64,000 nt of DNA. Origin: a phage. Numbering within the stretch: the stretch's first letter is position 1; every line of letters begins with the position of its first letter. The stretch lies in NCBI GenBank assembly GCA_018015315.1, contig GCA_018015315.1_3629.1. One strand, given 5' to 3'. The position numbers and the translations under genes were made by a program. The notes under the pieces are model-generated. The model made no database searches and was not told where the DNA came from. It saw only the letters and a list, made by a program, of their open reading frames with translations. Positions 11,473 through 60,483 of this stretch are shown piece by piece.

Positions 11473-13029
11473 TTAATTTTCCATGTTGGATATGGAATTA
11501 TCTCTGGTTGATGACATCTTAGAAGTGCCGTTGCCAGCGGATCCTGCAGCCATTCCATCGCCAGCCCTACTGATGTCCTGGCCCAAGAGCTTCATTAGCT
11601 CTTCCTGATCCATGTCCTCGTCAAATCTTTCATCAAACCCACCTACTTCAAGAATCTTATTAATTACTGCAGGAGTTTTTGGCAAGTAACCTACAGCACC
11701 GATCCTCTGGACAAACTTGGAGAAGCTCTCCATGTCCACCTCTTCAATCAGGCCAGGTTTCAGTTTAGGCATATCATCATCTTCAAGGATGATACCATTC
11801 AATGCCAGAAGCTGTGGAATAAGATCTTTATTGAAGGCCTCAGTGATAATATCTATATCACGCTGAACAAAATGACCATGGATAGACTGTTTTGACTCAG
11901 ACAGAGAGAAGGATCCGACGTTATCGTTACCGAGGTTAATAAAGCCAGCACCGAAACGGTCAAGAATCGCCTTCTTACGGGCATCAATCAAATCTTTAGT
12001 TGAATACTGCTTGCCCATACCGTCAACCCCCTTCAGGGTCATGGAGTAAAGCTCTTTACCAGACTTATCTCTATCAGACGGAAGTATAAAGAAACTTTGC
12101 TCCCCACTATGGGCGTTTGCTGCGTCAAGCATAAGATCTGCAACCATTCTCCCTTCCATTGAATTCGGGTCAATACTGGCCTTGTTCAAAATATTGGAAG
12201 GAATTTTCAGCTCAAGCACACCACCAAGGTCTTTGGAACAGCCAACAACCTCAAGGTTTTCAATCAAAACTTTCTCACGGAAAGATCTGTAGCAACCTAT
12301 CATCGGTGACACACCTGCAGGGTTAGATTCTGTTCCTGACAGAGTCATGAGCATAAGCTTTTTAGCAGGGATGAAAATTTCAGGCTCATTAAAGCCTTTT
12401 GAAGGCATTGCAGCGAGAGGACCAGCCCAGCGTGCATTCTGCGTGTTTAGAAATGCATTAGGTGATTGATAAATACCTGTCAGTGTTCTACTATTCTTGT
12501 CAAAGACAAACGGCTCTGATCTGGACAAACTGGCCTGTGGTCGGAACGCAATCTTATCAATAAGAAGCATCCCGGCGTATTTACCTTCTTTCTCTCTGCG
12601 GTATACTTTCTCAAACAGTGAAAAACCATACTCGTTAAAGGTAGCTGCGCTTCTTGCAATATCTCGAAGAGTTTGTTGGTTTGCCAAATTACGCAAAGAA
12701 TACTCTATAAGCTCGGCAGCTTTCTTAGAGTCTTCACTTTTAACATTATAAAGGATCTTAAAATCATTAAATGCTTTCGTGATGAAAACATATTTTGTAT
12801 CTAAGGCAGTAGCAACTGTGGAATCACATTTCATAGTCTCCACTGTGGCAATCAGTTGAGGCCAACGCAATTCCTCAACCATCATAGATTGTGATTCTGC
12901 CATAATTTGGGAAAGTGCGCCAGAACCGATCTCACTCATACGAACATTATGAGTTGGTGCGCCTGCGTTCCCAGATTTATTCACAGTTTTGGCTGTGGCG
13001 TTGTGTTTCCTGCGGTTCTTTTTGGACAC
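11473..13029 (-). CDS. portal protein
   Basis: 518 aa ORF directly downstream of terminase large subunit; acidic C-terminus. Confidence 0.6.
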   Translation of the reverse strand: MSKKNRRKHNATAKTVNKSGNAGAPTHNVRMSEIGSGALSQIMAESQSMMVEELRWPQLIATVETMKCDSTVATALDTKYVFITKAFNDFKILYNVKSEDSKKAAELIEYSLRNLANQQTLRDIARSAATFNEYGFSLFEKVYRREKEGKYAGMLLIDKIAFRPQASLSRSEPFVFDKNSRTLTGIYQSPNAFLNTQNARWAGPLAAMPSKGFNEPEIFIPAKKLMLMTLSGTESNPAGVSPMIGCYRSFREKVLIENLEVVGCSKDLGGVLELKIPSNILNKASIDPNSMEGRMVADLMLDAANAHSGEQSFFILPSDRDKSGKELYSMTLKGVDGMGKQYSTKDLIDARKKAILDRFGAGFINLGNDNVGSFSLSESKQSIHGHFVQRDIDIITEAFNKDLIPQLLALNGIILEDDDMPKLKPGLIEEVDMESFSKFVQRIGAVGYLPKTPAVINKILEVGGFDERFDEDMDQEELMKLLGQDISRAGDGMAAGSAGNGTSKMSSTRDNSISNMEN

Positions 13030-13052
13030 AAGCTTTACCCCTCAAAACAGTA

Positions 13053-13081
13053 TAACAAAATAGCCCTCGTGTTAGAGGGCT
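13053..13081 (-). terminator. hairpin between terminase and portal genes (attenuator?)
   Basis: AGCCCTC-GTGTTA-GAGGGCT followed by weak U-tract on minus strand. Confidence 0.3.
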
Positions 13082-13131
13082 AGTATCTCCGATTAATCTA
13101 TTCTACCACATCTAATTAAGATTGGCAACAC

Positions 13132-14679
13132 TTAGATAAAACGCTTGAACATAGAAGGTGATGAGATTGATGGAATCACACAAGGAAGTGCTACCTCCTC
13201 TTTCTCCAGGAAATTAATTGCAGAAGCTACACAGTCAGCCCAGTCGTCTTTTCTGTTAAATGTTGATCTTTCCCCGTTGAATTTTTCAAGTTCGGTCAGA
13301 AATGCTTCCAGAGTATCAGGATGGAAACTGGATTTTACAATCCTCACCATCCCTTGTTGGGCAAGATTGGCAAAAGGTGAGAACCTTGTCAGTTTAGACT
13401 TGTTGGAAGGCATTGGGTCTTCTTCAACCCTGAACCCTTCTGCGAGCAAGGATCTGGATGAGGTTAAGAACTCACTCTTACCTGCCTGACCAGGGTCCAC
13501 AGAGAATACGATTATACAATCATCACCATCAAACTGCGCCTGTTTCCTGATGATCACATCTCGTTCACCAGCCTTTTTACAGAACTTGCCTTCCAGACCT
13601 GTGGAATACCTCCCGTCATCCACGTTTTCAGGACAATAATCCCCTGACAGGTAATAAAATCCGTCGCTATCTTTACTTACCTTAACACTGGCGGTAAAGT
13701 CAGGAAATTTATTACCGGAAGTTCTCTCGGTTCCTGCCTTATCCCATGCCCTGCAAGATACTGATCCAAGGGGTACTCTATCGGCATCACGAAGGAAAGA
13801 TCTTTGAAAATAGTTTGCACCCTCAGGCTTTGCAAACCAGTTACCATGGAGAAGCTGAGCTTTTTCCAGCTCTGGTAGACCTTCGAGGAAAGCAAGGTAT
13901 TCTGGGTTGTCTCTCAAACAGACAGGATTATCGAATATTGTTGCGCCTATGAACGAGAATGACAACGGTCTTGGCTTGATCTCCACACCCAGTCCGTTAA
14001 CCGTGGTGTATTTCTCTATCAACTCTTCCTTAGAGTCTCCCCAAATAAATTCACCGTCGCGTCGGATAAAATATCTTTTCTTACCACATTTCTCCGGATC
14101 TGGATACCCTTCATCGTCCAACCACCATCTAACCAGTTTGGCAAGCATGTGTTCTGAATCAGGGTTACAGCTGATAACCATCCTTGATGGATACTTTGAC
14201 TGAGATCGCAGACGAGACATCAGGTAGTCTATCTGCTCCCATTCGAACTGCGTGCCCTCATCGAAGCAAACCATGGTGTACTCAAGCCCCTGATGGTTAA
14301 GCTTATCTTGTACATACTCCATGTGGCAGTATTTTACAACAGCTCCCTTTTTGCTTCTATCCCACTTGCCAGTGCTCGGATCAAACCGTGGAAAAATGAA
14401 CTTATGATCCTTCTCTCTAAACTTTGGCTTAATGTTTTCAGGCAGATCACTATAAATAGCTACTGCTTTAGGCCATAGTCCACCCTCACCTTCCAACTGC
14501 GGGGTTGTTCTTCGGAACATAACCACAGAGCTGTGGGGGTCATCAATAATTTTAAGCGGCATCAACTGCAAGAGGAACGACTTGCCAGACCCTGCGGCAC
14601 CGCCGATTACCAAAATATCTGCATCGTTTTCGAGGATCATCTTCTGCTTTTCAGAACACGGTCCGTAAATCTTAGACAT
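13132..14679 (-). CDS. terminase large subunit
   Basis: 515 aa; Walker A GGAAGSGKS near N-terminus, Walker B-like VCFDEG, C-terminal nuclease-sized domain. Confidence 0.85.
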   Translation of the reverse strand: MSKIYGPCSEKQKMILENDADILVIGGAAGSGKSFLLQLMPLKIIDDPHSSVVMFRRTTPQLEGEGGLWPKAVAIYSDLPENIKPKFREKDHKFIFPRFDPSTGKWDRSKKGAVVKYCHMEYVQDKLNHQGLEYTMVCFDEGTQFEWEQIDYLMSRLRSQSKYPSRMVISCNPDSEHMLAKLVRWWLDDEGYPDPEKCGKKRYFIRRDGEFIWGDSKEELIEKYTTVNGLGVEIKPRPLSFSFIGATIFDNPVCLRDNPEYLAFLEGLPELEKAQLLHGNWFAKPEGANYFQRSFLRDADRVPLGSVSCRAWDKAGTERTSGNKFPDFTASVKVSKDSDGFYYLSGDYCPENVDDGRYSTGLEGKFCKKAGERDVIIRKQAQFDGDDCIIVFSVDPGQAGKSEFLTSSRSLLAEGFRVEEDPMPSNKSKLTRFSPFANLAQQGMVRIVKSSFHPDTLEAFLTELEKFNGERSTFNRKDDWADCVASAINFLEKEEVALPCVIPSISSPSMFKRFI

Positions 14680-14966
14680 TAACCTCTCTCCTTTGGAAAC
14701 AGTGTTCTAATATAGTCTTGCAAAATGATCAATTTAGCTCTATCATTGCTACAAGACAAATTATTATCCCTCATAATGCCAGAATTTACTGCATCTGGAG
14801 CACCTTTCTTCAAAGGCATAGCTTTAGCAGGTGGTTTCATGGCACCTTCCGGGGGTTTAACAATCAACCTTCCTACATCTGGAGGGTCAATCTTGTATTC
14901 TCTCTCAACGCTGGTTGCACACCCACATAATAACAAGCACACAATAAACAGTGTAGCAACTCTCAT
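14679..14966 (-). CDS. o-spanin-like outer-membrane lipoprotein (Rz1-like)
   Basis: 95 aa; signal peptide with lipobox LLLCGC; Pro-rich mature region; start overlaps stop of upstream gene. Confidence 0.55.
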   Translation of the reverse strand: MRVATLFIVCLLLCGCATSVEREYKIDPPDVGRLIVKPPEGAMKPPAKAMPLKKGAPDAVNSGIMRDNNLSCSNDRAKLIILQDYIRTLFPKERG

Positions 14967-15782: not shown

Positions 15783-15859
15783 TGGTCTCCACGGAGTGAT
15801 TCGAACACTCGACCTCCTGATCCCAAATCAGGCGCTCTACCAAGCTGAGCTACGCGGAG
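15783..15859 (-). tRNA. tRNA-Pro (anticodon TGG)
   Basis: cloverleaf by eye: 7-bp acceptor stem (one G-T), anticodon loop TTTGGGA, T-loop TTCGAAT, encoded CCA. Confidence 0.8.
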
Positions 15860-15870
15860 TATTTACTATT

Positions 15871-15945
15871 TGGTGGCCCTGGGTGGAATTGAACCACCGT
15901 CTGGCGATTATGAGTCGCTTGCTTGAACCTTCCAGCTACAGGGCC
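15871..15945 (-). tRNA. tRNA-Met (anticodon CAT; initiator, elongator or Ile-lysidine not distinguishable)
   Basis: perfect 7-bp acceptor GGCCCTG/CAGGGCC, loop CTCATAA, T-loop TTCAATT, encoded CCA. Confidence 0.8.
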
Positions 15946-15946
15946 T

Positions 15947-16022
15947 TGGTGCTGATGGCAGGACTTGAACCTGCAACATATTGATTACAAATCAATTGCA
16001 CTACCAATTGTGCTACATCAGC
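15947..16022 (-). tRNA. tRNA-Thr (anticodon TGT)
   Basis: acceptor GCTGATG/CATCAGC, anticodon loop TTTGTAA, T-loop TTCAAGT, encoded CCA. Confidence 0.8.
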
Positions 16023-16029
16023 AAAAAGG

Positions 16030-16126
16030 TGCTAGGTGATGGAATCGAACCATCTATGTATTCAACGACTACCTCGTCTATTTTCAGGATTAAAAATCCT
16101 CGCCCTTGCCAAAGGGCTTACCTAGC
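16030..16126 (-). tRNA. atypical type-II tRNA-like gene (Leu-like scaffold, apparent anticodon TTT)
   Basis: perfect acceptor GCTAGGT/ACCTAGC, D-arm, perfect T-arm GATGG-TTCGATT-CCATC, discriminator A; anticodon hairpin AGGATTTTTAATCCT; about 30-nt variable region with GACGA/TCGTT hairpin; CCA not encoded. Confidence 0.45.
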
Positions 16127-16224
16127 TCAGTATGTTGACCATGTTGCTAGTCGGCGATGACGACTGTAACATTTGATAATCCGGTTCTGCTTCCGGCTTT
16201 CGCTTAATTACAAGGTCAACAATG

Positions 16225-16315
16225 TGGCAGAGGATAATGGAATCGAACCATCATCGAGTCATCCTCAACGGGACGGTTTTCAAGACCGCTTGAGCACCAT
16301 TGCTCCCTACCCTCT
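16225..16315 (-). tRNA. tRNA-Ser (anticodon TGA)
   Basis: type-II: acceptor AGAGGGT/ATCCTCT, anticodon loop CTTGAAA, about 20-nt variable arm, discriminator G, encoded CCA. Confidence 0.7.
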
Positions 16316-16432
16316 TTTATTATAAACAATACTGATAATGACACTGATTTTCGAGCAGTTAGTGACTAGTATAAACGACGATAAATACCAATGCCATTAT
16401 CTGTATGATTTATGCATCTAAAAATATAAATT

Positions 16433-16519
16433 TGGTGGGGAGTGGTGGAGTCGAACCACCCGAGTCGCAATGACAATAGATTTACAGTCTACACCGCTAC
16501 CTCTACGGGATAACTCCCC
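16433..16519 (-). tRNA. tRNA-Tyr (anticodon GTA)
   Basis: type-II: acceptor GGGGAGT/ACTCCCC, anticodon loop CTGTAAA, long variable arm, discriminator A, encoded CCA. Confidence 0.8.
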
Positions 16520-16523
16520 AATT

Positions 16524-16598
16524 TGGCACCCCGTACTGGACTCGAACCAGTGTCAACGGCTTAGAAGGCCGCTGCTTTATCCACTAAGCTAACAGGGC
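16524..16598 (-). tRNA. tRNA-Arg (anticodon TCT)
   Basis: anticodon stem-loop GCGGC-CTTCTAA-GCCGT, T-arm ACTGG-TTCGAGT-CCAGT, acceptor with two G-T pairs, encoded CCA. Confidence 0.75.
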
Positions 16599-19532: not shown

Positions 19533-20087
19533 TTACTCCCCGCTGTCAATAGCAAGACTCATTGCAATAAGGTATGCCTCTTCTAATGGTAAGAGTCTCC
19601 CCCACACATCCCAACCGACATCAAACTGCCTGCCAAACAACTGCTGTGTGGTTCCGTGAGCATGACCGAACAGTTGGACTGATCCGTGAGGCTTTCTGTT
19701 CCACTTTGCAAACTGGTAATGGCTCATACAGATCAAATTCTTGTTGTGGCGAAGCTCGTAATAATCTACAACCTCATGACCGAACTCTTTCATAATTCTG
19801 ACAGTCGTCCTTGTGTCATGGTTACCACGAACAAGAATAATATGTCCGTTCAACATATTTAGAACATCTGGGAGCAATTTGTTGATATTCTTATCATTAG
19901 TGCACGCAATATCTCCCAAGTGAAACACAGTGTCTGCAGGCGACACAACAGAGTTCCACTCGGCGATGATTCCCGCATTCATACTGTCAAGATTGTGATC
20001 ATACTGAGATCTGTGTTTTTGACATGAATCAAACTCCATGACCCGCTGGTGGAGAAAGTGTGTGTCGCTTGTTACAAAGTATTTCAT
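19533..20087 (-). CDS. calcineurin-like metallophosphoesterase
   Basis: motifs DTHF, GDIA, GNHD in order; start moved to ATG (MKYFVTSDTHF) with GAGGA RBS overlapping stop of kinase gene. Confidence 0.75.
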   Translation of the reverse strand: MKYFVTSDTHFLHQRVMEFDSCQKHRSQYDHNLDSMNAGIIAEWNSVVSPADTVFHLGDIACTNDKNINKLLPDVLNMLNGHIILVRGNHDTRTTVRIMKEFGHEVVDYYELRHNKNLICMSHYQFAKWNRKPHGSVQLFGHAHGTTQQLFGRQFDVGWDVWGRLLPLEEAYLIAMSLAIDSGE

Positions 20088-20094
20088 ACATTCC

Positions 20095-20505
20095 TCATTT
20101 AAGTTTAATGCAGTTTTTAAGCTGGCGTTCCATACGATCCACAACCTTGTCTGGAACATCATGAATGCTTTTATTACCGTGGCGGTTTTCAACCACGATC
20201 ACGGTATAACTATACCCATGACTGATTGCCATGTCAACATATTCCTGCACATGTTTTTCTTTTGTAAACGTATTACTTACCACGATACGGTCGTATCCCA
20301 TACGCATCATATCTTCTACGTTATCTTTGCACCATTTTGCTGCGAGTGTTACTTTACTTGCATCCCAGTTGTAATTGCCGTCATCGTCATACCAGAACAT
20401 ATCGTTCTCAAAATGTGGATACAGACCTTCTAAAGATAGCGCATTTGCCAGTGTTGATTTGCCAGACCCTGGCAGACCACGCACGATATATAGCATTTTA
20501 GACAT
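20095..20505 (-). CDS. P-loop kinase (polynucleotide-kinase-like)
   Basis: Walker A GLPGSGKST at N-terminus, about 135 aa; start at ATG (MSKMLYIV) with GGAGG RBS. Confidence 0.6.
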   Translation of the reverse strand: MSKMLYIVRGLPGSGKSTLANALSLEGLYPHFENDMFWYDDDGNYNWDASKVTLAAKWCKDNVEDMMRMGYDRIVVSNTFTKEKHVQEYVDMAISHGYSYTVIVVENRHGNKSIHDVPDKVVDRMERQLKNCIKLK

Positions 20506-20533
20506 AGCAATCCTCCGTTTTAATTTTAATGAT

Positions 20534-20562
20534 AGTATACCTAACTGTTTTGTTAATTTCAA
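20534..20562 (-). promoter_or_regulatory. sigma70-like promoter for kinase/phosphoesterase operon
   Basis: minus-strand TTGAAA-17 bp-TATACT upstream of RBS. Confidence 0.45.
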
Positions 20563-20623
20563 GTGTTGACACTAGGTTATTTGTGTGGCAGGATAGACTG
20601 ACAAAATGACAAATGAGGAACGT

Positions 20624-21541
20624 ATGATGAAGTATTTTAATGCAGATGACCTAGTAGACAAAGGTCTTGTAACCAGTCGGTATTATCCAGATCTTGGATT
20701 AAAGATCTATAAATATGCCAGAAAAGTATTCTACAACAATCTGTGGCATTTGTCTCCGCGTTTACTGGAGTGCCGAGGTATTGTTGTTGGCAATGAGGGG
20801 AATGTTGTGGCATGGCCTTTCACAAAAGTATTCAACTTAGGAGAAAACTCCACCAACCTACCGGACAGTAAACTTGTTACTGCGGTAGAGAAAAAGAACG
20901 GATTCCTCGGTGTGGTATCATCTCATAAAGGTGAACTATTGTTCTCAACAACCGGGTCTCTTGATTCTCCATATTGTAACCTTGCAAAGGAAACCATCCA
21001 AGAGCAATGTGGTAATTTAGATCTTATCAAGAAGGTTATGGGCAATGAAAACATGACATTCATGTTTGAAATTTGTCACCCTTCAGATCCGCATATTGTT
21101 CAAGAAGACCATGGCGCATATTTGATAGGTTGCAGATATAATGATTCTGGAATAATGCTACCAGAAGCAGCTTTAGATGGGATTGCCAAATACCTTGGTG
21201 CAAAACGTCCTCACACTGTGCGTGAAATCCCGTTCAGCTATGCAAAAGAATTAGCTGCAGAAACAAGGGGCGAAGGGTATATGATCCGTAAGCCTTACTA
21301 CCCTTATGACCTGCAGCTGAAGATCAAGTCTCCATACTATTTGGCACGGAAGGCCGTAATGAGAGGTAAAGCATGGAAGATTTGGGATGACGATATTTTT
21401 AAACGTGTTGACGAGGAGTTTTACGGTATGGTAAAATTTATTCGTAGCAACTATACAGAAGATGTGTGGAATTGCTTATTAGAGCAGGAGCGTCGCGAGA
21501 TACTGGACTGCTATTTCCACAACGAGGACTACATGAAATGA
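20624..21541 (+). CDS. RNA-ligase-like nucleotidyltransferase
   Basis: ligase motifs: I EKKNGF, III FMFEI, IV EGYMIRK, V LKIKSP; start taken at ATG 20624 after GAGGA (track start 20606). Confidence 0.5.
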   Translation: MMKYFNADDLVDKGLVTSRYYPDLGLKIYKYARKVFYNNLWHLSPRLLECRGIVVGNEGNVVAWPFTKVFNLGENSTNLPDSKLVTAVEKKNGFLGVVSSHKGELLFSTTGSLDSPYCNLAKETIQEQCGNLDLIKKVMGNENMTFMFEICHPSDPHIVQEDHGAYLIGCRYNDSGIMLPEAALDGIAKYLGAKRPHTVREIPFSYAKELAAETRGEGYMIRKPYYPYDLQLKIKSPYYLARKAVMRGKAWKIWDDDIFKRVDEEFYGMVKFIRSNYTEDVWNCLLEQERREILDCYFHNEDYMK

Positions 21542-21888
21542 AGAAGTGGATTGTGTGGCTTGATGATTTTAGAGATCCGTCAGATTATGGACTCCCAGAC
21601 GCTCTGTGGCTAAAGAATTCTTCTGAATTTATGGATTTTCTTAATGATAAGAGAAAGCTCTACAGACGCGTATCTGAATGGTATTTTGACAATGATCTAG
21701 GTGAAGTTCTTGAAGGGTACGACTGCTTCTCTGCGCTAGAGGAGAAACTTGTATTCGGAAAGCCACCACTTATTGACAACGTGATTATTTTCGTGCATAC
21801 TTCTAATCCATCGGCAGCTCGTAAATTTATGCTTGCTGCTGACTCATTCAAGAAGTTTGGAATAGAGATCAAACAAAACATCTACTGA
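21538..21888 (+). CDS. hypothetical protein coupled to Sir2-like gene
   Basis: 116 aa; ATG overlaps ligase stop (ATGA); ends 9 bp before Sir2-like start. Confidence 0.4.
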   Translation: MKKWIVWLDDFRDPSDYGLPDALWLKNSSEFMDFLNDKRKLYRRVSEWYFDNDLGEVLEGYDCFSALEEKLVFGKPPLIDNVIIFVHTSNPSAARKFMLAADSFKKFGIEIKQNIY

Positions 21889-21896
21889 GGACACTT

Positions 21897-22658
21897 ATGC
21901 GACGACTGATTATTATCTCCGGTGCTGGTTTGAGCGCTGAATCTGGTATTCCCACTTTCCGATCTGGTAGCACTGCAATGTGGGAGAATTTCAGCATCGA
22001 TGAGGTGTGCAACATCCACACCTTTGCCAAGAACTACTATAAGGTGCATGACTTTTACAATGCACGTCGTGTAGCTCTGGGCAGTGTTGATCCTAACCTT
22101 GCACATCTTCGGATCGCTGAGTGGTATTCCCGCTGGTCTGGTCGTGTGATCAACCTTACCACCAATGTAGATGATTTGCTGGAGCGTGCTGGTGTAAAAC
22201 ATGAAGATATTTTACATGTCCACGGGTATTTGCCTGAAATCACCTACGAAGATGCTGAAGGTAATGATGTAATTAAAAATATCGGATACACGGAGGTAGA
22301 TACAGGCAAGTATACCTGGGTTAAGCCCAATGTAGTGTTCTTCGGTGAGGTTGCTCCTAAGTATACAGACATGTATGACCTGTTGACATCTCTCACAAGC
22401 AATGATATGGTGATCCTAGTAGGTTGTTCTAACACAGTTATTAATTTTAACTGGGAATTGTTTCCTGCTACTTGTAAAGGCACAAAACTGCTGATTGTAA
22501 ACAAGTATGACTCGCAGAGTGCAGATGGAAGTGGCATTTCACGTAGCGACCTTTATCAATATGAGGATCGCGGGATCCCTGTATGGTTTAACGGTGCTGT
22601 TGACGCTTTCTCTGATAAAGCATTTATTGAAACTGTAGAAAACTTTATGGAACTTTAA
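21897..22658 (+). CDS. Sir2-family protein (no zinc ribbon)
   Basis: GAGLSAESGIPTFRS, TTNVDDL, catalytic HG, VVFFGE motifs; no CxxC pairs. Confidence 0.75.
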   Translation: MRRLIIISGAGLSAESGIPTFRSGSTAMWENFSIDEVCNIHTFAKNYYKVHDFYNARRVALGSVDPNLAHLRIAEWYSRWSGRVINLTTNVDDLLERAGVKHEDILHVHGYLPEITYEDAEGNDVIKNIGYTEVDTGKYTWVKPNVVFFGEVAPKYTDMYDLLTSLTSNDMVILVGCSNTVINFNWELFPATCKGTKLLIVNKYDSQSADGSGISRSDLYQYEDRGIPVWFNGAVDAFSDKAFIETVENFMEL

Positions 22659-22671
22659 AAGGAGACCTTTA

Positions 22672-23385
22672 ATGCTGAATACTAAACTGATCGACAACCT
22701 GGAAAAACTGTCTCAGCCTGAAAACTACCTTTGGTCTGCCAACTGGGTGGAAAACTGGAACCGTGTGGCAGCTAAAGTGAAAAAATCATACACACCATTC
22801 GAATTACAGCTTAGCTTCATTGAGGAAGAGTTCAATGAGGTTTTGGAAGAGCTGGAGAAAGGTGATGGTGGAGATCACCTGCTAAAAGAGGCCTGCGATC
22901 TTCACGTTGTCACAAGTTATGCCGCTTATCTTGTTAATGATAATCACGAAAAGTGGTCAAACCTGTTTGATAATCCACGAGGTCTTAAGTTCAAGATCGG
23001 TGAGTTCTATGATACACTGATCGCTGCGAAAAACACATCCAAGCAAAGAGCGTCAGCTTACCGCTTAGCGGAGTTGTCAACAGCTTTGCTGTTCCAGCTT
23101 CGCGGCGATGTGTGTGGGATGATGCGGAAGGTTCTCAAATCTAATGACAGTAAGTTTGCACGGATCAACCATCTACGATATTCTCACAGTGCCAGTGCAG
23201 ATATGTCTACTGAATTGCTCATAGAGTTAGAGATTGAAGATCTTGAGCGTCGTTTTGGTGGTCGCTACGAAGGTTTCGTTGCTAAAGAGGAGTTCTACAA
23301 CGGTAATAAAGTTATTATATTCCTTGACAGTAAAGGTAAGATTATGAAGCCTTCGAGCTTCAAGGATGTAACAGAGTATATTTAA
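22672..23385 (+). CDS. MazG-like nucleotide pyrophosphohydrolase domain protein
   Basis: N-terminal EEEFNEVLEELEKGD...KEACDLH resembles MazG EExxE/D motif. Confidence 0.4.
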   Translation: MLNTKLIDNLEKLSQPENYLWSANWVENWNRVAAKVKKSYTPFELQLSFIEEEFNEVLEELEKGDGGDHLLKEACDLHVVTSYAAYLVNDNHEKWSNLFDNPRGLKFKIGEFYDTLIAAKNTSKQRASAYRLAELSTALLFQLRGDVCGMMRKVLKSNDSKFARINHLRYSHSASADMSTELLIELEIEDLERRFGGRYEGFVAKEEFYNGNKVIIFLDSKGKIMKPSSFKDVTEYI

Positions 23386-23391
23386 CAACAT

Positions 23392-23418
23392 AGCCGGGAT
23401 TACCCGGCTTTACTTATT
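23392..23418 (+). terminator. rho-independent terminator
   Basis: AGCCGGG-ATTA-CCCGGCT followed by TTTACTTATT. Confidence 0.5.
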
Positions 23419-23756: not shown

Positions 23757-24012
23757 TCTTGCTAAACCTGTAGAAGCACACCAGTTTGATGGAAGCTCTT
23801 CATCAGTATCTGATCTGCAACGGTGGATTGATACAGGTGTGTTTACATCGTCACCTGTTCGGACCAGAGATATTCGTCGCATGTGTGAGCTTGTTGAGCC
23901 GTTTGGCAACTTGGTTTTGTACCAGGGAGATTGGTTAGTTGACTTTATGGGAGACTGGTCGGTAATGAGTAAAGAAGAGATGTTTAAAATTTTTAAGGAA
24001 GAGGCCGAGTAA
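23743..24012 (+). CDS. hypothetical protein
   Basis: 89 aa ORF overlapping neighbours. Confidence 0.4.
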   Translation: MPLFNLAKPVEAHQFDGSSSSVSDLQRWIDTGVFTSSPVRTRDIRRMCELVEPFGNLVLYQGDWLVDFMGDWSVMSKEEMFKIFKEEAE

Positions 24013-25295
24013 TGCATCAAATCAAAACAACACTGTACGCACTGAACAAAGATGGCAGCTACCAACAGTGGAAAGTATTCACTGATGGCGAAAAGGTTAT
24101 CGTAGAGTTTGGCAAGCTTGACGGTAAATTGCAGTACAAAGAGACGGTATGCACACCTAAAAACGTAGGTCGTGCCAACGAGACTACAGCTGAGCAACAG
24201 GCCGAGCTTGAGGCTATCAGCAAGTGGGAAAAACAAGTCCGTCTGGGGTATGTTGAAAACATGGAAGATTGCGAGCAGGGTGTTGATCTTTTACCTATGC
24301 TGGTGCATGACTACCTGAAGCGTGGCAAGGCACTTAAATTACCTTGCTGGATCTTGCGTAAGTTAGATGGCCTTCGTCTGCTTGTTGTTTTCCAAAATGG
24401 TGAGCCTAAATTTATTTCCCGTGGTAATAAGTCCTACCCTATTCAAGGAAAGCTTTTAGAGCAACTTCGTTCTTTCCATTCTACCACTGGGATTAAACAA
24501 CTTGATGGGGAACTATACATTCATGGTCTTCCTTTGCAGAAAATAGTGTCTCTTGCTAAACGGTGGCGCACACAGGAAGAGATTCAGGCCGAGATCGATA
24601 AAGACTATGAGGCAGATAAAAAACGCCGTCATGCAGCAATTAAGGCAGGCTTATCAACATACAAAAACTTCAACAAGGTAGATATTCCTGTCGATGTTGA
24701 GCCTGTTCGTGATGATTTGCGTTACGGTGGGTACTGTAGCTACGATCTGGAGTATCACATTTTTGATATTCCTAGCGACAAGGTGTGGTGGGATCCAGAA
24801 ACAGAGTCTGGACGCTGCAAGGATCTTATGGATGCAGAGGATACCGTTACCACTCTGATGCTTGATCATATCAAGGTTGTTGACGCAGAGCTTGCGTACA
24901 CAGTTGATCATTGCGAAGAATCTGTTGGTATATTCATGTCCGAAGGATATGAAGGTACTATCATGCGTAATTTCTGCGGTAAATATGAGTATGGTCAGCG
25001 AACATCTGAAGCATTGAAATGGAAAAAGTTCAACGACGCAGAGGTGAAAGTTATTGACGTTGAGAAAGATAAGAATGATGAAGGTGTTCTTATCTGTGTT
25101 GACAAGGAAGGTGTTGTTGTTAAAATGAAGATGAAAGGCACGCACGAGGAGCGTAGCTATGACAGGATGCAGGAAATGATCGGCAAGTTTGTCACCTTCA
25201 AATACCAAGCAAGGACAGAAGACAACAACTACCAATTCCCTGTCGGTATCTGCGTCCGAAATGTTAACCCAGACACTTGGGAGGTGCTTGAATGA
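24012..25295 (+). CDS. ATP-dependent DNA ligase
   Basis: 427 aa; motif I KLDGLR (KxDGxR) and downstream ligase-like motifs. Confidence 0.8.
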   Translation: MHQIKTTLYALNKDGSYQQWKVFTDGEKVIVEFGKLDGKLQYKETVCTPKNVGRANETTAEQQAELEAISKWEKQVRLGYVENMEDCEQGVDLLPMLVHDYLKRGKALKLPCWILRKLDGLRLLVVFQNGEPKFISRGNKSYPIQGKLLEQLRSFHSTTGIKQLDGELYIHGLPLQKIVSLAKRWRTQEEIQAEIDKDYEADKKRRHAAIKAGLSTYKNFNKVDIPVDVEPVRDDLRYGGYCSYDLEYHIFDIPSDKVWWDPETESGRCKDLMDAEDTVTTLMLDHIKVVDAELAYTVDHCEESVGIFMSEGYEGTIMRNFCGKYEYGQRTSEALKWKKFNDAEVKVIDVEKDKNDEGVLICVDKEGVVVKMKMKGTHEERSYDRMQEMIGKFVTFKYQARTEDNNYQFPVGICVRNVNPDTWEVLE

Positions 25296-57333: not shown

Positions 57334-57683
57334 CACACAATTAGCTGCCAGGCTAAAGTGCTGGAAGCACCTATAACACATCTTTCAACTAAATTTCCTA
57401 CCACCACAATCACTTACCTCCCACACATGACTGTTTGCTTGTTTAGTGAGCAGTCATGCCTTGACATTCTTGCCTATCCTGATAAAATTAAGTTCTTCTC
57501 TTTTCTTTTACCGAGTAATTCGGGTTTTCTGTTCTCTTCGGTTTGAAGGGGTATGGAGATACACCTGAGTGAACAGGGTGAACAACCGAACATTTGGCTA
57601 TGGCATTAGCATGGCGAAGCGGACGGGTGACGAAAGAGGGGCCGGAGGACACCAGTCACTGCCATATGGTATATGGGTGATAA

Positions 57684-58224
57684 CCTGAAGAGTCTGAATA
57701 AGTGTTTAAGTACCAGTCAGAGGAAAAGGTGAATGGTAGCCGAAGGGGGAGGGGGGTTTCTTGTATCTTTAATTTGTATATTATGTATACACTTGTAAAC
57801 CAATCTCATTTGAATTTGTTTACCACACAAAGTGGATAGAGACAAATATTACCTATTAAACTTGAATTATTTATAGAAAATACCACAACACTACTTAAGT
57901 CTTTGATTTTACACACAAATCCTGCAGATATTCACCCTCCATATTTAACATACTTGTAACATATTCCATACTCTACCTGCCCGATCAATTCACCCAACTA
58001 CATCCCCATATTTTCCCTGTCTGTACTACCCCTGCCCCGCCGGGAGTCCCGTCATATCTGGCTTTCCAGCAAATATCACACCCACAAATATCATTGCCTG
58101 AAGAGGGTTTCATCCCATAGTACATGCCTTACCTGAAGAGCGCTTCATATACCCCGTAAATTTTTTAATTGACACCCTCCCCGCCGCCGGAGGGGGTTGG
58201 CTTTTCCCACACAGACCTGAAGAG
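57684..58224 (+). repeat. dispersed direct repeat CCTGAAGAG (4 copies)
   Basis: exact 9-mers at 57684, 58097, 58132, 58216 in non-coding DNA. Confidence 0.7.
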
Positions 58225-58785
58225 CCAGCCAGAAATATCTGAACAGGTCCAGCTATGCCACGATTTTGTGCTTGTCCTACAGGAGTGCTTCCCTGTCAGG
58301 AGCCGGTAGCGACTGGAGTGCTGCCAGGCGGACGAAATGGGAATACTTCTCATTCTTATAACAATTCTCAAATATCGAGGCAGTGAGACAAATTAATAGG
58401 CTTTGCCGTTCACACAATGGCACAACATTTGCAGCCTATCTTGTGGGGGGTGAATGAGAATACCTATCATTGCGAGAATAGTTATCATTACGGGCAATTT
58501 AACATAATACCCATTATGCGCACCACTGGCGATATATACAGGGGTTAATAACATGGTGGACTGTTTACGCACATTACAATTGCATTACTTATTATTTGTG
58601 TGGGATATAGTTAGCCACCAACAGATTGCATAATAACCTGCAGACTTCCAGCCGTCCAGACGCCTAAGCGCCTACACAATAAGGATTATACATACACAAC
58701 TGAATGTAAACAGGGCCGCAAAAATGCTACCATACAAGATTGTAAATTTTTCATGCAGCACTTGACAAAGAGGAGAAAAACTTGT

Positions 58786-58875
58786 CTGACATACTGGTGA
58801 CATAATATGACACTTTAGACACAATAGTGACATACTGGACACGATATGACACACTGGGCATAATTGACATACCTG
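58786..58875 (+). repeat. iteron-like array of (A/T)GACA(C/T)A motifs at 10-11 bp spacing
   Basis: about 8 copies, including TGACATACTGG twice and TGACACACTGG once. Confidence 0.7.
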
Positions 58876-58983
58876 ACTGTTTACGCTGTCACTATTCACT
58901 CGCTTACATGCTTAATAGACTACATGACTAATAGTTTACATAGCTAACTGTTCACGTATAGATTGTTTACTTAAAAATGATAA

Positions 58984-59264
58984 GCCATGCCATTCGTTTG
59001 CATGATAAAGATTAGCAAGTTAATAATCTTTCACTGGCTATGCCAGGTGACCTTTTGTCACCTCTTCGGGTGTTTCTATGACATAATATAAAAGCAGGGC
59101 AACTATTAGCAGATCTATAGTTGCCTTGCTTGTTATGTCATGATTAACTAAATACAAGGCAACTATGATCTGATTAATAGATTGCAGACAAACTATCACG
59201 GGGGTGATGGTTACTGCTTTTATATTATGTCGCGACTCCGTCGCGCCATGCCATTCGTTTGCAT
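58984..59264 (+). repeat. 20-bp perfect direct repeat GCCATGCCATTCGTTTGCAT (2 copies)
   Basis: copies at 58984-59003 and 59245-59264. Confidence 0.8.
59098..59125. repeat. palindrome GGCAACTAT-10 bp-ATAGTTGCC
   Basis: 9-bp inverted repeat; further half-site copies near 59160 and 59265. Confidence 0.75.
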
Positions 59265-59880
59265 AGTTGCCTTATTGTTACAGATAAAATAATTATATTG
59301 TTAATTATTTCTTATCTTTCTCTTAGTCATCTAATGATTCCAGTCAGTATAGTAATGTACAGTAAACATTAGACGACTAAAGATTTATCTGCTTATAATA
59401 ACTTACCGTGACAATTCCGGACTGTTTACGAAAAATGTTGACACCTGAGCTGATTTATGTTATGCAATTTACACGAATAATTATTTTATGCAGGTATTGA
59501 CTATTACGTTATTCTATGGTCGGAATAAATACTTAGCGGACTATAGAATGGTGACGCTACGTGAATTCTGGAATTTAGTGGCTATAGTTATACCCGATTT
59601 TTCACGTAGAACACGCTTTTGTGGTTATGTAAGTGTATGACTTATAAAGATTTTTAGTTGTTGACAAGGCACTGAAGATATGCATCAGGTTAAATTTTGT
59701 GCAATAGCTGCATTACGTGCAATTTTGGAAGGAAAAACGTGTAAAAATGGCCCTGCTACCACACAATGAAAGATTATGCAATAGCTATTTTACATGTATA
59801 TTTGTACAGTGTGTGGGATTGATGGCTAGTCAATTATTCCACTTGCCAGGCTGGGCCGTTTGTGGTAGGAGAAATACAGA

Positions 59881-59909
59881 CAAAAAGAAAGGGGCCTTTT
59901 AAAGCCCCT
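59881..59909 (-). terminator. rho-independent terminator
   Basis: GGGGC..GCCCC hairpin followed by U-tract on minus strand; 20 bp downstream of stop of 59928-60347. Confidence 0.6.
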
Positions 59910-59927
59910 GATAGTTTAGTTAAGAAA

Positions 59928-60347
59928 TTATAATGATTCGTATATTTGATAGATTCGATTTGCCAGGTCATTACGATAGCGGAATTTTTCATCACGCTTG
60001 ATCATCAGATCTTTGAAGCCATATTCTTTAAGCACTTCATTAACTTTATAGCGGCATACCTTCATATTATCTTGCGCGTCACCGATAAACTTGTTGCTAT
60101 GATGCATGGCTTTGATCTCTTCCTCCAGGACCAGGGCAACTACGCGGACCGGATCAAGCTGATATGCGGTAACATCAATGCGGCATTGTAAACGGCTTTT
60201 AACGTCTGCCACCGGATATACTGCAACCTCTTCCCCGTCAACATTCACAATAACCAGTTTACCATCAATTTCAAAACCTTTTGCGGCTGGGCCGTGACAA
60301 AAAGCGTTATCAAAGCTGTATGCGGGATTGTTAGATTTAATATTCAT
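59928..60347 (-). CDS. hypothetical protein
   Basis: 139 aa; own promoter and terminator. Confidence 0.5.
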   Translation of the reverse strand: MNIKSNNPAYSFDNAFCHGPAAKGFEIDGKLVIVNVDGEEVAVYPVADVKSRLQCRIDVTAYQLDPVRVVALVLEEEIKAMHHSNKFIGDAQDNMKVCRYKVNEVLKEYGFKDLMIKRDEKFRYRNDLANRIYQIYESL

Positions 60348-60393
60348 GGTGTTTACCTCTTAGATAATTTTCTTACAACTTCCCTTCAAAAAG

Positions 60394-60422
60394 AATATAG
60401 CAAAACTGCCGATCCCTGTCAA
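60394..60422 (-). promoter_or_regulatory. sigma70-like promoter
   Basis: minus-strand TTGACA-17 bp-TATATT. Confidence 0.5.
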
Positions 60423-60483
60423 CAAGGGATAGCATAATTTTTGTGTGGGCAATAGGGGCCGTAGCCCCTGGTTGTATCGCCTG

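Follow-up and report, generated by a model that had tools for sequence, protein, structure and literature searches.

In the stretch of phage DNA analysed here (the window; 64,000 nucleotides, contig GCA_018015315.1_3629.1), genes for a P-loop kinase, a calcineurin-like metallophosphoesterase and a nucleotidyltransferase lie side by side in the neighbourhood of a phage tRNA cluster. The question raised by this locus is whether the three proteins act together in the repair of broken RNA, and to what extent such an arrangement is already described.

Identity of the locus

The window belongs to an rV5-like Vequintavirus, a phage of E. coli, and is 98.7-99.3% identical to published phages (99.3% to phage MiataMamis and 98.7% to rV5). 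The three genes are homologues of rV5 gp076 (metallophosphoesterase), gp077 (P-loop kinase) and gp078 (RNA ligase). The MiataMamis and rV5 records already carry the labels RNA ligase, phosphoesterase, and ATPase or polynucleotide kinase, and the BASEL annotation of the trio reads "polynucleotide kinase / phosphoesterase / RNA ligase". Exactly such a neighbourhood, with phage V5 as the prototype, was described by Iyer et al. in 2022 (Viruses, PMC9503650); the "sirtuin-centred RNA-repair neighbourhood" of V5 and Proteus phage Mydo of Iyer, Burroughs, Anantharaman and Aravind is the same locus as that of the window. Since the arrangement was published and annotated before, it is no discovery. The RNA-repair reading of the cluster is supported as correct and is already known, and in content the finding adds nothing to the databases and the 2022 comparative-genomics paper. 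A literature search for experiments on the rV5-type ligase, kinase or phosphoesterase retrieved no biochemical or genetic test.

An earlier note, made from the sequence only, had described three activities encoded as separate neighbouring genes, and this is confirmed by the open reading frames, the motifs and the Pfam and PHROG matches, which for all three proteins are far above chance. The canonical DNA ligase (KLDGLR, 24012-25295) which it had listed separately matches the DNA_ligase_A_M and OB domains of Pfam. Its unit of 19533-21541 correctly holds the trio, but the end at 21541 is too early: the cREC, Sir2 and MazG-like genes and the terminator-like hairpin after them had been missed (Table 1).

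Table 1. Features of the RNA-repair locus and its surroundings; positions are those of the window.
Feature	Position	Strand	Remarks
Seven tRNA genes	15783..16598	-	Pro, Met/Ile-CAU, Thr, Lys-UUU (long insert), Ser, Tyr, Arg; ARAGORN, Rfam
Calcineurin-like metallophosphoesterase (rV5 gp076 homologue)	19533..20087	-	184 aa from MKYF; proposed 2',3'-cyclic-phosphate/3'-phosphate healer
Small P-loop kinase (rV5 gp077 homologue)	20095..20505	-	136 aa from MSKM; proposed RNA 5'-OH kinase
Sigma-70-like promoter inside kinase gene, 5' of phosphoesterase gene	20209..20237	-	TTGACA-17-TATAGT, 11/12; P80 in rV5 RefSeq
Sigma-70-like promoter of kinase-phosphoesterase unit	20534..20562	-	TTGAAA-17-TATACT, 10/12, consensus match only
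Perfect -35 hexamer toward ligase operon	20566..20571	+	TTGACA, read from sequence
Rnl1-like ATP-dependent RNA ligase, predicted (rV5 gp078 homologue)	20606..21541	+	311 aa, or 305 aa from ATG 20624
cREC, cyclic-phosphate-processing receiver-like, predicted (rV5 gp079 homologue)	21538..21888	+	116 aa; Pfam PF20274 cREC_REC 9e-14
Sir2-family protein without zinc module (rV5 gp080 homologue)	21897..22658	+	253 aa; Pfam SIR2 7e-28
MazG-like nucleotide pyrophosphohydrolase, predicted (rV5 gp081 homologue)	22672..23385	+	237 aa; phrog_671 6e-22
GC-rich terminator-like hairpin, end of ligase-cREC-Sir2-MazG unit	23392..23409	both	7-bp stem, 6 GC pairs, T-rich tail; terminator scan

Ligase, kinase and phosphoesterase

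The ligase carries the motifs EK96KNG99F, F154E155I, E223G224YMIRK and LK239IK241SP. Of its two possible starts ATG 20624 is more likely than 20606; a GAGGA Shine-Dalgarno sequence (20615-20619) precedes it, and the same start is used in the record of BASEL phage EmilHeitz. The protein passes the cut-off of Pfam RNA_lig_T4_1 (PF09511; 9e-15, 55.6 bits against 28.3) and has a best PHROG match of 9e-66, but remains below the cut-off of the NCBIfam equivalog TIGR02308 for T4 RnlA (38 bits against 242); by profile score it is classed as a member of the Pfam family and not as a T4 RnlA equivalog. Single-sequence searches of the PDB with the ligase, and likewise with the kinase, gave noise only, and family profiles were needed for matches of either protein. 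For the ligase family profile, T4 Rnl1 entries were the sole PDB matches (E 5e-13), and hhalign against T4 Rnl1 gave 97.5% probability. The proposal that this second enzyme is an RNA ligase, against which matches confined to DNA-ligase or capping-enzyme profiles would have spoken, is in this way supported.

The residues K96-x-N-G99, E155, E223-G224 and K239-x-K241 are identical in all of 73 homologues and align to T4 K99/G102, E159, E227/G228 and K240/K242, with Lys96 as the predicted adenylylation site. R57 and K74, invariant in the phage ligase family, and F76 (93%) align to T4 R54, K75 and F77, the roles of whose equivalents are taken from PMC6379707. All catalytic and N-terminal subdomain residues of T4 Rnl1 are common to the gp078-type ligase. 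In overall fold T4 Rnl1 is the closest relative and Trl1-LIG is nearly as close. The C-terminal domain of T4 Rnl1 defines the clade and gives tRNA specificity. It has about 120 residues, some 50 more than the all-helical C-terminal region here (about 70 residues, 243-311), with no detectable similarity between the two. The idea of a shortened T4 C-domain is favoured by a MAFFT alignment, which pairs D269-E-E271 with the T4 D-D-E though without statistical support, whereas hhalign of the two C-domains finds no significant similarity (E 0.19-0.25).

The kinase, whose ATG has a GGAGG Shine-Dalgarno sequence 6 nt 5' of it, contains the P-loop G10-LPGSGKST-18, with G10, G13, G15, K16 and T18 invariant and S17 at least 90% conserved. 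It matches Pfam AAA_33 at 1e-10 and, among the PHROGs, phrog_2071 at 3e-58 and phrog_505 "polynucleotide kinase" at 5e-10. Its family profile matches the Mucorales stand-alone RNA 5'-OH kinase, Pnkp1, PSTK, T4 Pnk and CthPnk, the best PDB match being the stand-alone Rhizopus RNA 5'-OH kinase 9d8a (E 3e-6). The kinase domain of T4 Pnkp is alignable as well (hhalign against residues 1-141, 95.7% probability, E 9e-9), and Asp35 falls on Asp35. The structural model (pLDDT 82.7, falling under 60 for the lid, residues 111-130) has TM-scores (TMq) of 0.71-0.77 to T4 Pnk, CthPnk, PSTK and Pnkp1, as against about 0.5-0.6 to shikimate, gluconate, adenylate and UMP-CMP kinases; a grouping with polynucleotide and tRNA kinases, and not with small-molecule kinases, is supported by the model.

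S77-N78-T79 of the kinase align to T4 S84-D85-T86, with T79 invariant; the threonine which anchors the first phosphodiester is T86 in T4 and T80 in CthPnk. In the Asp-x-x-Arg motif of RNA-repair kinases the Asp serves as general base and the essential Arg binds the first phosphodiester (PMC3902929). The general-base Asp35 is present here and invariant in the family, but the motif is incomplete, an aromatic residue standing at the Arg position (W38 in this protein, F or Y among its relatives), so that R38 of T4 Pnkp has no equivalent. The role of the missing Arg might fall to R9, an invariant residue that precedes the P-loop. In the terms of Iyer et al. the protein is just a "nucleotide kinase" (PMC9503650).

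The phosphoesterase shows the motifs D8-T-H10-F, G58-D59-I-A and G88-N89-H90-D91, the complete set being DxH, GD, GNH[DE], H and GHxH. It matches Pfam Metallophos_2 (1e-6) and Metallophos, and phrog_547 at 7e-51. The binuclear-metal ligands D8, H10, D59, N89, H90, H123, H142 and H144 are all invariant in 21 diverse homologues. The profile of these homologues, searched against the PDB, found Aquifex aq_1665 (1xm7, E 1e-21) as the nearest solved relative and then weak, unrelated metallophosphoesterases, CthPnkp and lambda phosphatase being absent from the matches. The protein is assigned by these profile matches to the uncharacterised aq_1665 subfamily, and it lies outside that of lambda phosphatase and CthPnkp. 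As metallophosphoesterases able to heal 2',3'-cyclic-phosphate ends PMC2190708 gives the CthPnkp phosphatase and lambda phosphatase; with the phage enzyme placed outside their subfamily, it is from context only that we infer an RNA 3'-end activity.

Operon structure and gene neighbourhood

The ligase heads a rightward operon of four genes (ligase, cREC, zinc-less Sir2 and MazG-like), and kinase and phosphoesterase are read leftward. A shared promoter region at 20534-20571 had been proposed between them. Its minus-strand site was found, but the plus-strand half was rejected: toward the ligase operon the -35 hexamer is present alone, no -10 at 16-18 nt reaching the threshold of the scan.

The ligase stop and the cREC ATG overlap as ATGA (21538-21541), and cREC is translationally coupled to the ligase. 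Assignment of cREC to PF20274 agrees with its score (52.3 bits, cut-off 27), with its receiver-type residues (D51, D53, T88, S89 and K96 invariant, D9/D10 at least 90% conserved), with the lack of a histidine-kinase partner and with the RNA-repair context; its activity is a prediction. A homologue search with cREC found 55 close relatives, all of the same phage group, so that they provide no independent evidence of context, and a profile search returned no solved relative. The nearest solved relative of the Sir2 protein is CobB of E. coli (1s5p, 3e-21); GAGxS, N90, D92 and H109 are conserved, and there are no cysteines at the positions of the CobB Zn ribbon. In the MazG-like protein, labelled nucleotide pyrophosphohydrolase in RefSeq, E52, E53, E56 and D76 are conserved.

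Neighbouring genes were counted in viral contigs for those 45 ligase clusters whose flanks extend 3 kb or more to either side. Within 3 kb of the ligase the kinase is found in 42 clusters, the phosphoesterase in 40 and both in 37, and no cluster has neither. Compared to Iyer et al. 2022, whose paper is centred on the sirtuin, this ligase-centred survey shows kinase and phosphoesterase to be widely conserved partners of the ligase. Three different orders of the trio occur among related phages, and kinase-ligase fusions in a single ORF are present in independent metagenomic contigs; by Pfam, no substitute 3'-healing enzyme was found within about 3-4 kb per side of such fusions (L053). Kinase and ligase are adjacent in 465 records of cultured phages. 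The conserved linkage, the permuted orders and the fusions support a functional heal-and-seal triad. cREC or Sir2 is near the ligase in just 8-10 of the 45 clusters, confined to rV5/Mydo-like phages of about 145 kb, and cREC, Sir2 and the MazG-like gene are lineage-specific additions.

The seven phage tRNA genes seen near the cluster were found again by ARAGORN and Rfam. Their distance, given earlier as about 4 kb, holds for the ligase start (4.0 kb), but the phosphoesterase gene is nearer (2.9 kb). Related viral loci have tRNA genes close to the ligase gene as well, at no more than about 10 kb in 34 of 44, and the phage tRNAs are likely substitutes or substrates.

Proposed pathway, alternatives and known repair systems

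Quite probably the cluster is a module by which the phage repairs RNA breaks ("heal and seal"), and what it re-joins are most likely tRNAs cut by host defences. Enzymatic activities, tRNA substrate and anti-defence role we infer; the analysis itself shows to which families and folds the proteins belong, that their catalytic residues are conserved, how the operon is built, and that linkage and fusion are conserved. The metallophosphoesterase would hydrolyse the cyclic or terminal phosphate to leave a 3'-OH, the small P-loop kinase would phosphorylate the 5'-OH with Asp35 as general base, and the Rnl1-like ligase, adenylylated at Lys96, would seal the 3'-OH and 5'-phosphate ends at the expense of ATP, presumably in tRNA anticodon loops. 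cREC, Sir2 and the MazG-like protein would most likely act on ends with a cyclic phosphate or 2'-phosphate, or on NAD-derived by-products, as proposed by Iyer et al. 2022 (PMC9503650).

The 3' end could also be healed mainly by a 2'-phosphate route in the style of fungal and plant tRNA splicing, which we consider unlikely. Here a 2'-phosphate/3'-OH end, made by cREC from the cyclic phosphate, would be sealed by the ligase, Sir2 with NAD+ would strip the 2'-phosphate from the junction in a Tpt1/KptA-like way, and the by-product would be cleared by the MazG-like enzyme or the phosphoesterase. cREC, Sir2 and MazG do share the operon of the ligase, in Mydo-like phages cREC lies between ligase and kinase, and Iyer et al. 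draw the analogy of Sir2 with KptA, yet the literature reports no activity for cREC or for this Sir2 clade (PMC9503650). The match of the ligase fold to Trl1-LIG is almost equal to that to T4 Rnl1, but the ligase family profile, which reaches T4 Rnl1, fails to find Trl1 with E as high as 10. The ligase family further has an invariant N98 (motif I), H163 (8 residues past the motif III Glu) and K249/R253 (at +8/+12 after motif V), where T4 Rnl1 has D101, I167, H250 and S254; they stand at offsets like those of CthTrl1 N150, H227, R334 and R337, which bind a sulfate taken as a mimic of the 2'-phosphate (PMC6379707). This is a match of sequence offsets and not a superposition, and the four residues are conserved family-wide, against the few clusters with cREC or Sir2. 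It is in our view unlikely that the rV5-type operon is the phage counterpart of fungal and plant tRNA-splicing chemistry, with cREC as a new cyclic phosphodiesterase leaving a 2'-phosphate, a ligase that tolerates or requires this phosphate and the sirtuin as a new NAD-dependent 2'-phosphotransferase replacing Tpt1/KptA. If true, two unrelated folds would gain new RNA-repair enzymology.

The remaining alternatives take away one or more of the partners. It is rather doubtful that the ligase alone acts on RNA, with a nucleotide or small-molecule kinase (e.g. for NAD or nucleotide salvage) and a general or protein phosphatase beside it. Lambda phosphatase was reportedly first described as a protein phosphatase, the phosphoesterase subfamily is uncharacterised, and in JG004 and Mydo the module is bordered by NAD-salvage genes; as to the kinase, the missing DxxR arginine and weak profile matches to nicotinamide riboside, gluconate and shikimate kinases have to be set against its fusions with the ligase and linkage to it, the TM-scores reported above and the conserved general-base Asp and phosphodiester-anchoring Thr. 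Mammalian PNKP heals DNA ends, and kinase and phosphoesterase might in the same way prepare DNA ends with 3'-phosphate and 5'-OH for sealing by the ATP-dependent DNA ligase nearby. That the module is mainly such a DNA-repair unit we take to be very unlikely: linkage, translational coupling and fusion are all with the RNA ligase and none with the DNA ligase, whose spacing and orientation relative to the module vary. With this ligase 2.5 kb downstream in the window and no more than 10 kb away in 46 of 83 loci, DNA ends are nonetheless a conceivable target; the phosphoesterase has a weak match to the ligase-associated PdeM model (E 2e-4, far under the cut-off), and characterised polynucleotide kinases accept DNA too (PMC11571804). 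Hardly credible is a function of gp078 chiefly as a catalyst of tail-fibre attachment, the second activity ascribed to T4 gp63, which many annotations have copied. GenBank product names do read "RNA ligase 1 and tail attachment protein", but the name is carried over from T4 by similarity, the adenylyltransferase residues are all strictly conserved and the gene stands among early nucleic-acid-metabolism genes beside the healing enzymes, not among tail genes.

One of the systems closest to the heal-and-seal module is that of T4, whose Pnkp (PseT) and RNA ligase 1 are to our knowledge the sole proven phage RNA-repair pair. T4 likewise encodes a 5'-kinase, 3'-end healing and Rnl1-type sealing, and its Pnkp and Rnl1 genes are also neighbours, 1.4 kb apart. 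T4, however, joins kinase and HAD (DxDxT) phosphatase in one protein, whereas here the kinase stands alone and the metallophosphoesterase is the candidate phosphatase. The same chemistries (P-loop kinase, binuclear metallophosphoesterase and ATP-dependent ligase) are found in Clostridium thermocellum Pnkp-Hen1 and Capnocytophaga Pnkp1-Rnl-Hen1, but there the modules are fused or in a complex with Hen1, and here they are separate, with a phosphoesterase of another subfamily. No Hen1-like gene is annotated near the module, and the single polypeptide, Hen1 partner and Rnl4-type ligase of bacterial Pnkp-Hen1 are not what this locus encodes. Healing and sealing on separate polypeptides, as here, is also seen in the split version of the Trl1 system in Mucorales, where ligase, kinase and CPD are individual proteins (Ghosh et al. 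2024, PMC11571804); compared to fungal Trl1 and Tpt1 there is no 2H-type CPD or Tpt1 here, and cREC and Sir2 are proposed analogues only. Pakpunavirus and other phages (JG004, Adele, phiPsa, Vibrio and Acinetobacter phages) carry homologous ligase and kinase genes next to each other, and the pair of Adele has been read as tRNA repair (PMC12846349). In JG004 the phosphoesterase lies about 1 kb upstream of the pair. Unlike in the rV5 type, the genes of JG004/Adele-type phages are all co-directional, and cREC and Sir2 are absent.

Phage RNA repair is among the few known viral ways to undo tRNA-cutting host defences. The ligase-kinase pair is present in hundreds of cultured phages of Escherichia, Pseudomonas, Vibrio, Klebsiella and Acinetobacter, so that the module described here is far commoner than that of T4, from which its healing enzymes differ. 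This wide spread, together with healing enzymes unlike those of T4, makes it a good and cheap target for biochemistry and for plating against host defences (PrrC, RloC, PARIS, retron-Eco7 and Cas13-type).

Annotation and assignment of the three genes

By megablast, segment 19000-22000 of the window matches 120 phage records, best of all Escherichia phage MiataMamis (99.3%) and rV5 (98.7%), genus Vequintavirus. The locus contains the genes of a metallophosphoesterase (gp076 in rV5), a P-loop kinase (gp077) and, on the opposite strand, a ligase (gp078). The rV5 RefSeq labels are 'phosphoesterase', 'ATPase' and 'RNA ligase 1 and tail attachment protein'; those of BASEL phage EmilHeitz are 'putative phosphoresterase', 'polynucleotide kinase' and 'RNA ligase', the kinase having already been named by the BASEL annotators in GenBank records. 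About 20 unannotated 'Campylobacter phage' GenBank records (MG0656xx; H8-H13, H24, H25, H49 and H54 in the megablast list) are ~98% identical to the rV5-like region and are probably mislabelled or contaminant genomes.

The three reading frames are those described in the earlier note, with the motifs reported there: DTHF, GDIA and GNHD in the phosphoesterase, GLPGSGKST in the kinase, and EKKNGF, FMFEI, EGYMIRK and LKIKSP in the ligase. With GAGGA ahead of it, ATG 20624 is a likelier ligase start than 20606. Pfam matches are RNA_lig_T4_1 (ligase, 9e-15), AAA_33 (kinase, 1e-10) and Metallophos_2 (phosphoesterase, 1e-6), and the PHROG matches lie between 1e-51 and 1e-66; Pfam also confirms the separate DNA ligase. 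The proposed shared promoter is supported in part: the minus strand has a sigma-70-like consensus site, but on the plus strand the -35 box has no acceptable -10. All seven tRNA genes were recovered; their reported distance of about 4 kb applies to the ligase start (4.0 kb), but the phosphoesterase gene is only 2.9 kb away.

Features of the window (coordinates in nt)
Feature	Position	Strand	Remark
Terminase large-subunit gene, match to rV5	~11854-14699	-	
Seven tRNA genes	15783-16598		
tRNA-Lys (anticodon UUU)	16030-16126	-	one of the seven; 26-nt insert in variable region
Phosphoesterase gene	19533-20087	-	
Kinase gene	20095-20505	-	
Promoter inside kinase gene	20237..20209	-	ahead of phosphoesterase gene; rV5 'P80'; stronger than 20562..20534
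Sigma-70-like promoter	20562..20534	-	10/12 positions match
TTGACA	20566-20571	+	perfect -35
Ligase gene	20606-21541	+	
Sir2 gene	21897-22658	+	closest to CobB
GC-rich hairpin with T tail	23392-23409		after MazG-like gene
DNA ligase gene	24012-25295		
Six copies of ACTGTTTACG-like motif	57423-59606		
Repeat-rich region	~57800-60450		2.6 kb
Perfect 20-nt direct repeat	58984 / 59245		
Perfect 18-nt inverted repeat	59080-59097 / 59214-59231		

The ligase has 1682 relatives of ~300 amino acids. Across 73 unique viral-contig homologues conservation is 100% at R57, K74, K96, N98, G99, E155, E223, G224, K239 and K241, and 93% at F76. In hhalign (97.5% probability against T4 Rnl1) R57, K74, F76, K96, N98, G99, E155, E223, G224, K239 and K241 fall on T4 R54, K75, F77, K99, D101, G102, E159, E227, G228, K240 and K242, motif I thus having Asn where T4 has Asp. 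The only PDB matches of the family profile are three T4 Rnl1 entries (E 5e-13), and the AlphaFold model has a mean pLDDT of 90.4. A protein related to DNA ligases or capping enzymes alone is argued against by the profile and hhalign matches to T4 Rnl1, and the reading as an RNA ligase stands. Its score is far below the NCBIfam cut-off of the T4 RnlA equivalog; the C-terminal domain is ~50 residues shorter than that of T4, with no significant similarity to it.

An invariant His lies 8 residues past the motif III Glu, and Lys/Arg are conserved 8 and 12 residues past motif V. Together with the Asn these have offsets similar to N150, H227, R334 and R337 of fungal Trl1, which bind a sulfate taken to represent the 2'-phosphate (PMC6379707). 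As they are also conserved in many phages devoid of cREC and Sir2, a strict requirement for a 2'-phosphate is argued against.

The kinase belongs to a family of stand-alone proteins of ~130 amino acids (at least 7989 clusters), in which R9, G10, G13, G15, K16, T18, D35, N78, T79, E106, N107, R108, H109 and H115 are invariant in a 30-member alignment. Its profile matches in the PDB are weak, and all those with real coverage are RNA or polynucleotide kinases: the Rhizopus stand-alone RNA 5'-OH kinase (3e-6), Pnkp1 (3e-4), PSTK (6e-4), T4 Pnk (7e-4) and CthPnk (1e-3). Against T4 Pnkp hhalign gives 95.7% probability across the kinase domain, placing D35 on the T4 general base D35 and S77-N78-T79 on T4 S84-D85-T86. 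The model (pLDDT 82.7) fits best to T4 Pnk, CthPnk, PSTK and Pnkp1 (TM 0.71-0.77), with small-molecule kinases at ~0.5-0.6. The Asp-x-x-Arg motif which defines RNA-repair kinases (PMC3902929) is only half present, the Arg position being aromatic family-wide.

All binuclear-metal ligands of the phosphoesterase are invariant. Among solved structures, only that of the uncharacterised Aquifex protein aq_1665 is strongly related to it (1e-21), and neither the CthPnkp phosphatase nor the lambda phosphatase gave a match. An action on RNA 3' ends is proposed because of the gene context and because metallophosphoesterases are known to be able to hydrolyse 2',3'-cyclic phosphates (PMC2190708).

Gene order and linkage in other phages

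Iterated HMMs that started from the proteins of the window were run against the ORFs of 80 loci, which a scan of viral contigs with the ligase alignment had yielded. Among 83 loci, including the window and two reference records, the kinase was present in 77, the phosphoesterase in 65, cREC in 13, Sir2 in 14 and MazG in 16. Collapsing the ligases at 90% identity and requiring at least 3 kb of flanking sequence to either side left 45 clusters; within 3 kb of the ligase, 42 had the kinase, 40 the phosphoesterase, 37 both and none neither. The order is permuted (phosphoesterase-ligase-kinase, kinase-ligase-phosphoesterase, ligase-phosphoesterase-kinase), the divergent arrangement being peculiar to rV5-like phages. 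In viral contig loci L040-L054 kinase and ligase are fused in a single ORF of 421-432 amino acids, except in L050, whose ligase is truncated by the end of the contig; Pfam confirmed the fusion on L053:9527-10825. Such fusions were seen only in metagenomic viral contigs (IMG/VR) and not in cultured phages, and no metallophosphoesterase lies within 10 kb of them. Permuted order together with fusion is standard evidence for a joint function of the three proteins. The genes are present in 669 cultured-phage records, including Pakpunavirus, phiPsa-like, Vibrio, Klebsiella, Acinetobacter, Erwinia and Salmonella phages, and kinase and ligase stand side by side in 465. Of 44 loci scanned for tRNA genes, 34 carry them no more than ~10 kb from the ligase.

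Suppressor-type tRNAs (anticodon CUA or UUA) lie within 10 kb of the module in L052, L053, L058, L060, L062, L064 and L068, some of which also carry a phage tmRNA, a hint that stop-codon recoding or ribosome-rescue functions cluster with RNA repair. In two distant phages, Pseudomonas phage JG004 (L085 4361-7196) and Proteus phage Mydo (L086 1-1005), NAD-salvage genes directly adjoin the module, encoding proteins like ribose-phosphate pyrophosphokinase and nicotinamide phosphoribosyltransferase; they are absent from the part of rV5 corresponding to the window. Their position suggests an anti-defence gene island.

The rightward operon and other features

Three genes downstream of the ligase were missed in the earlier note. 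The next gene, whose ATG shares nucleotides with the ligase stop codon, encodes a 116-amino-acid protein matching Pfam cREC_REC ('cyclic-phosphate processing receiver domain', 9e-14); the Sir2 gene starts 8 nt past it, a MazG-like gene 13 nt past Sir2, and a hairpin follows, so the rightward unit is ligase-cREC-Sir2-MazG. The Sir2 protein aligns with E. coli CobB across the NAD-binding and catalytic parts, H109 being conserved, but lacks zinc-ribbon cysteines: the stretch corresponding to the zinc-binding part of sirtuins contains none. The cREC, Sir2 and MazG genes are lineage-specific additions, restricted to the ~145-kb rV5/Mydo-like group; in Mydo-like phages cREC lies between ligase and kinase. 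In the proposal of Iyer et al. (PMC9503650), 2'-phosphates would be the target of the sirtuin, working in the manner of KptA/Tpt1, and cREC would resolve cyclic phosphates.

The tRNA-Lys (Rfam tRNA, 37.5 bits) is mis-read by ARAGORN with a 4-base anticodon; it is unannotated in the rV5 RefSeq record and labelled tRNA-Lys in BASEL. PrrC and PARIS both target tRNA-Lys(UUU), and this odd-shaped phage tRNA may therefore be a nuclease-resistant substitute. The repeat-rich region has no annotated gene in rV5. Gene orientation and GC skew both change over there, and the region may contain an origin of replication or have a regulatory role. The terminase large-subunit gene is annotated in rV5 as three joined pieces, and is therefore interrupted by intervening sequences.

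The proposed pathway and its relation to known systems

Most likely the three proteins heal and seal cut tRNAs: the phosphoesterase would strip the 2',3'-cyclic or 3' phosphate, the kinase would phosphorylate the 5'-OH, and the ligase, adenylylated on K96, would seal the ends. Substrates would be host or phage-encoded tRNAs cut by host anticodon nucleases. The analysis itself shows the families and folds, the conserved residues, the operon and the linkage of the genes, from which the enzyme activities and the role in infection are inferred. The system would work like T4 Pnkp/Rnl1 and bacterial Pnkp, but is a member of neither: its phosphatase and that of T4 belong to different superfamilies, its kinase lacks the canonical arginine, it has no Hen1, and its ligase is not an Rnl4. 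Like the split Mucorales tRNA-splicing enzymes, it is unfused.

The exact gene neighbourhood, with phage V5 as named prototype, was published in 2022 (Iyer et al., PMC9503650), and a homologous Pakpunavirus pair was interpreted as tRNA repair in 2025 (PMC12846349); experiments on the rV5-type ligase, kinase or phosphoesterase were not found in the literature. The RNA-repair finding is therefore correct, already known as a prediction and of modest interest, and the value of the module is that it offers an alternative to the T4 paradigm which is widespread and easy to test.
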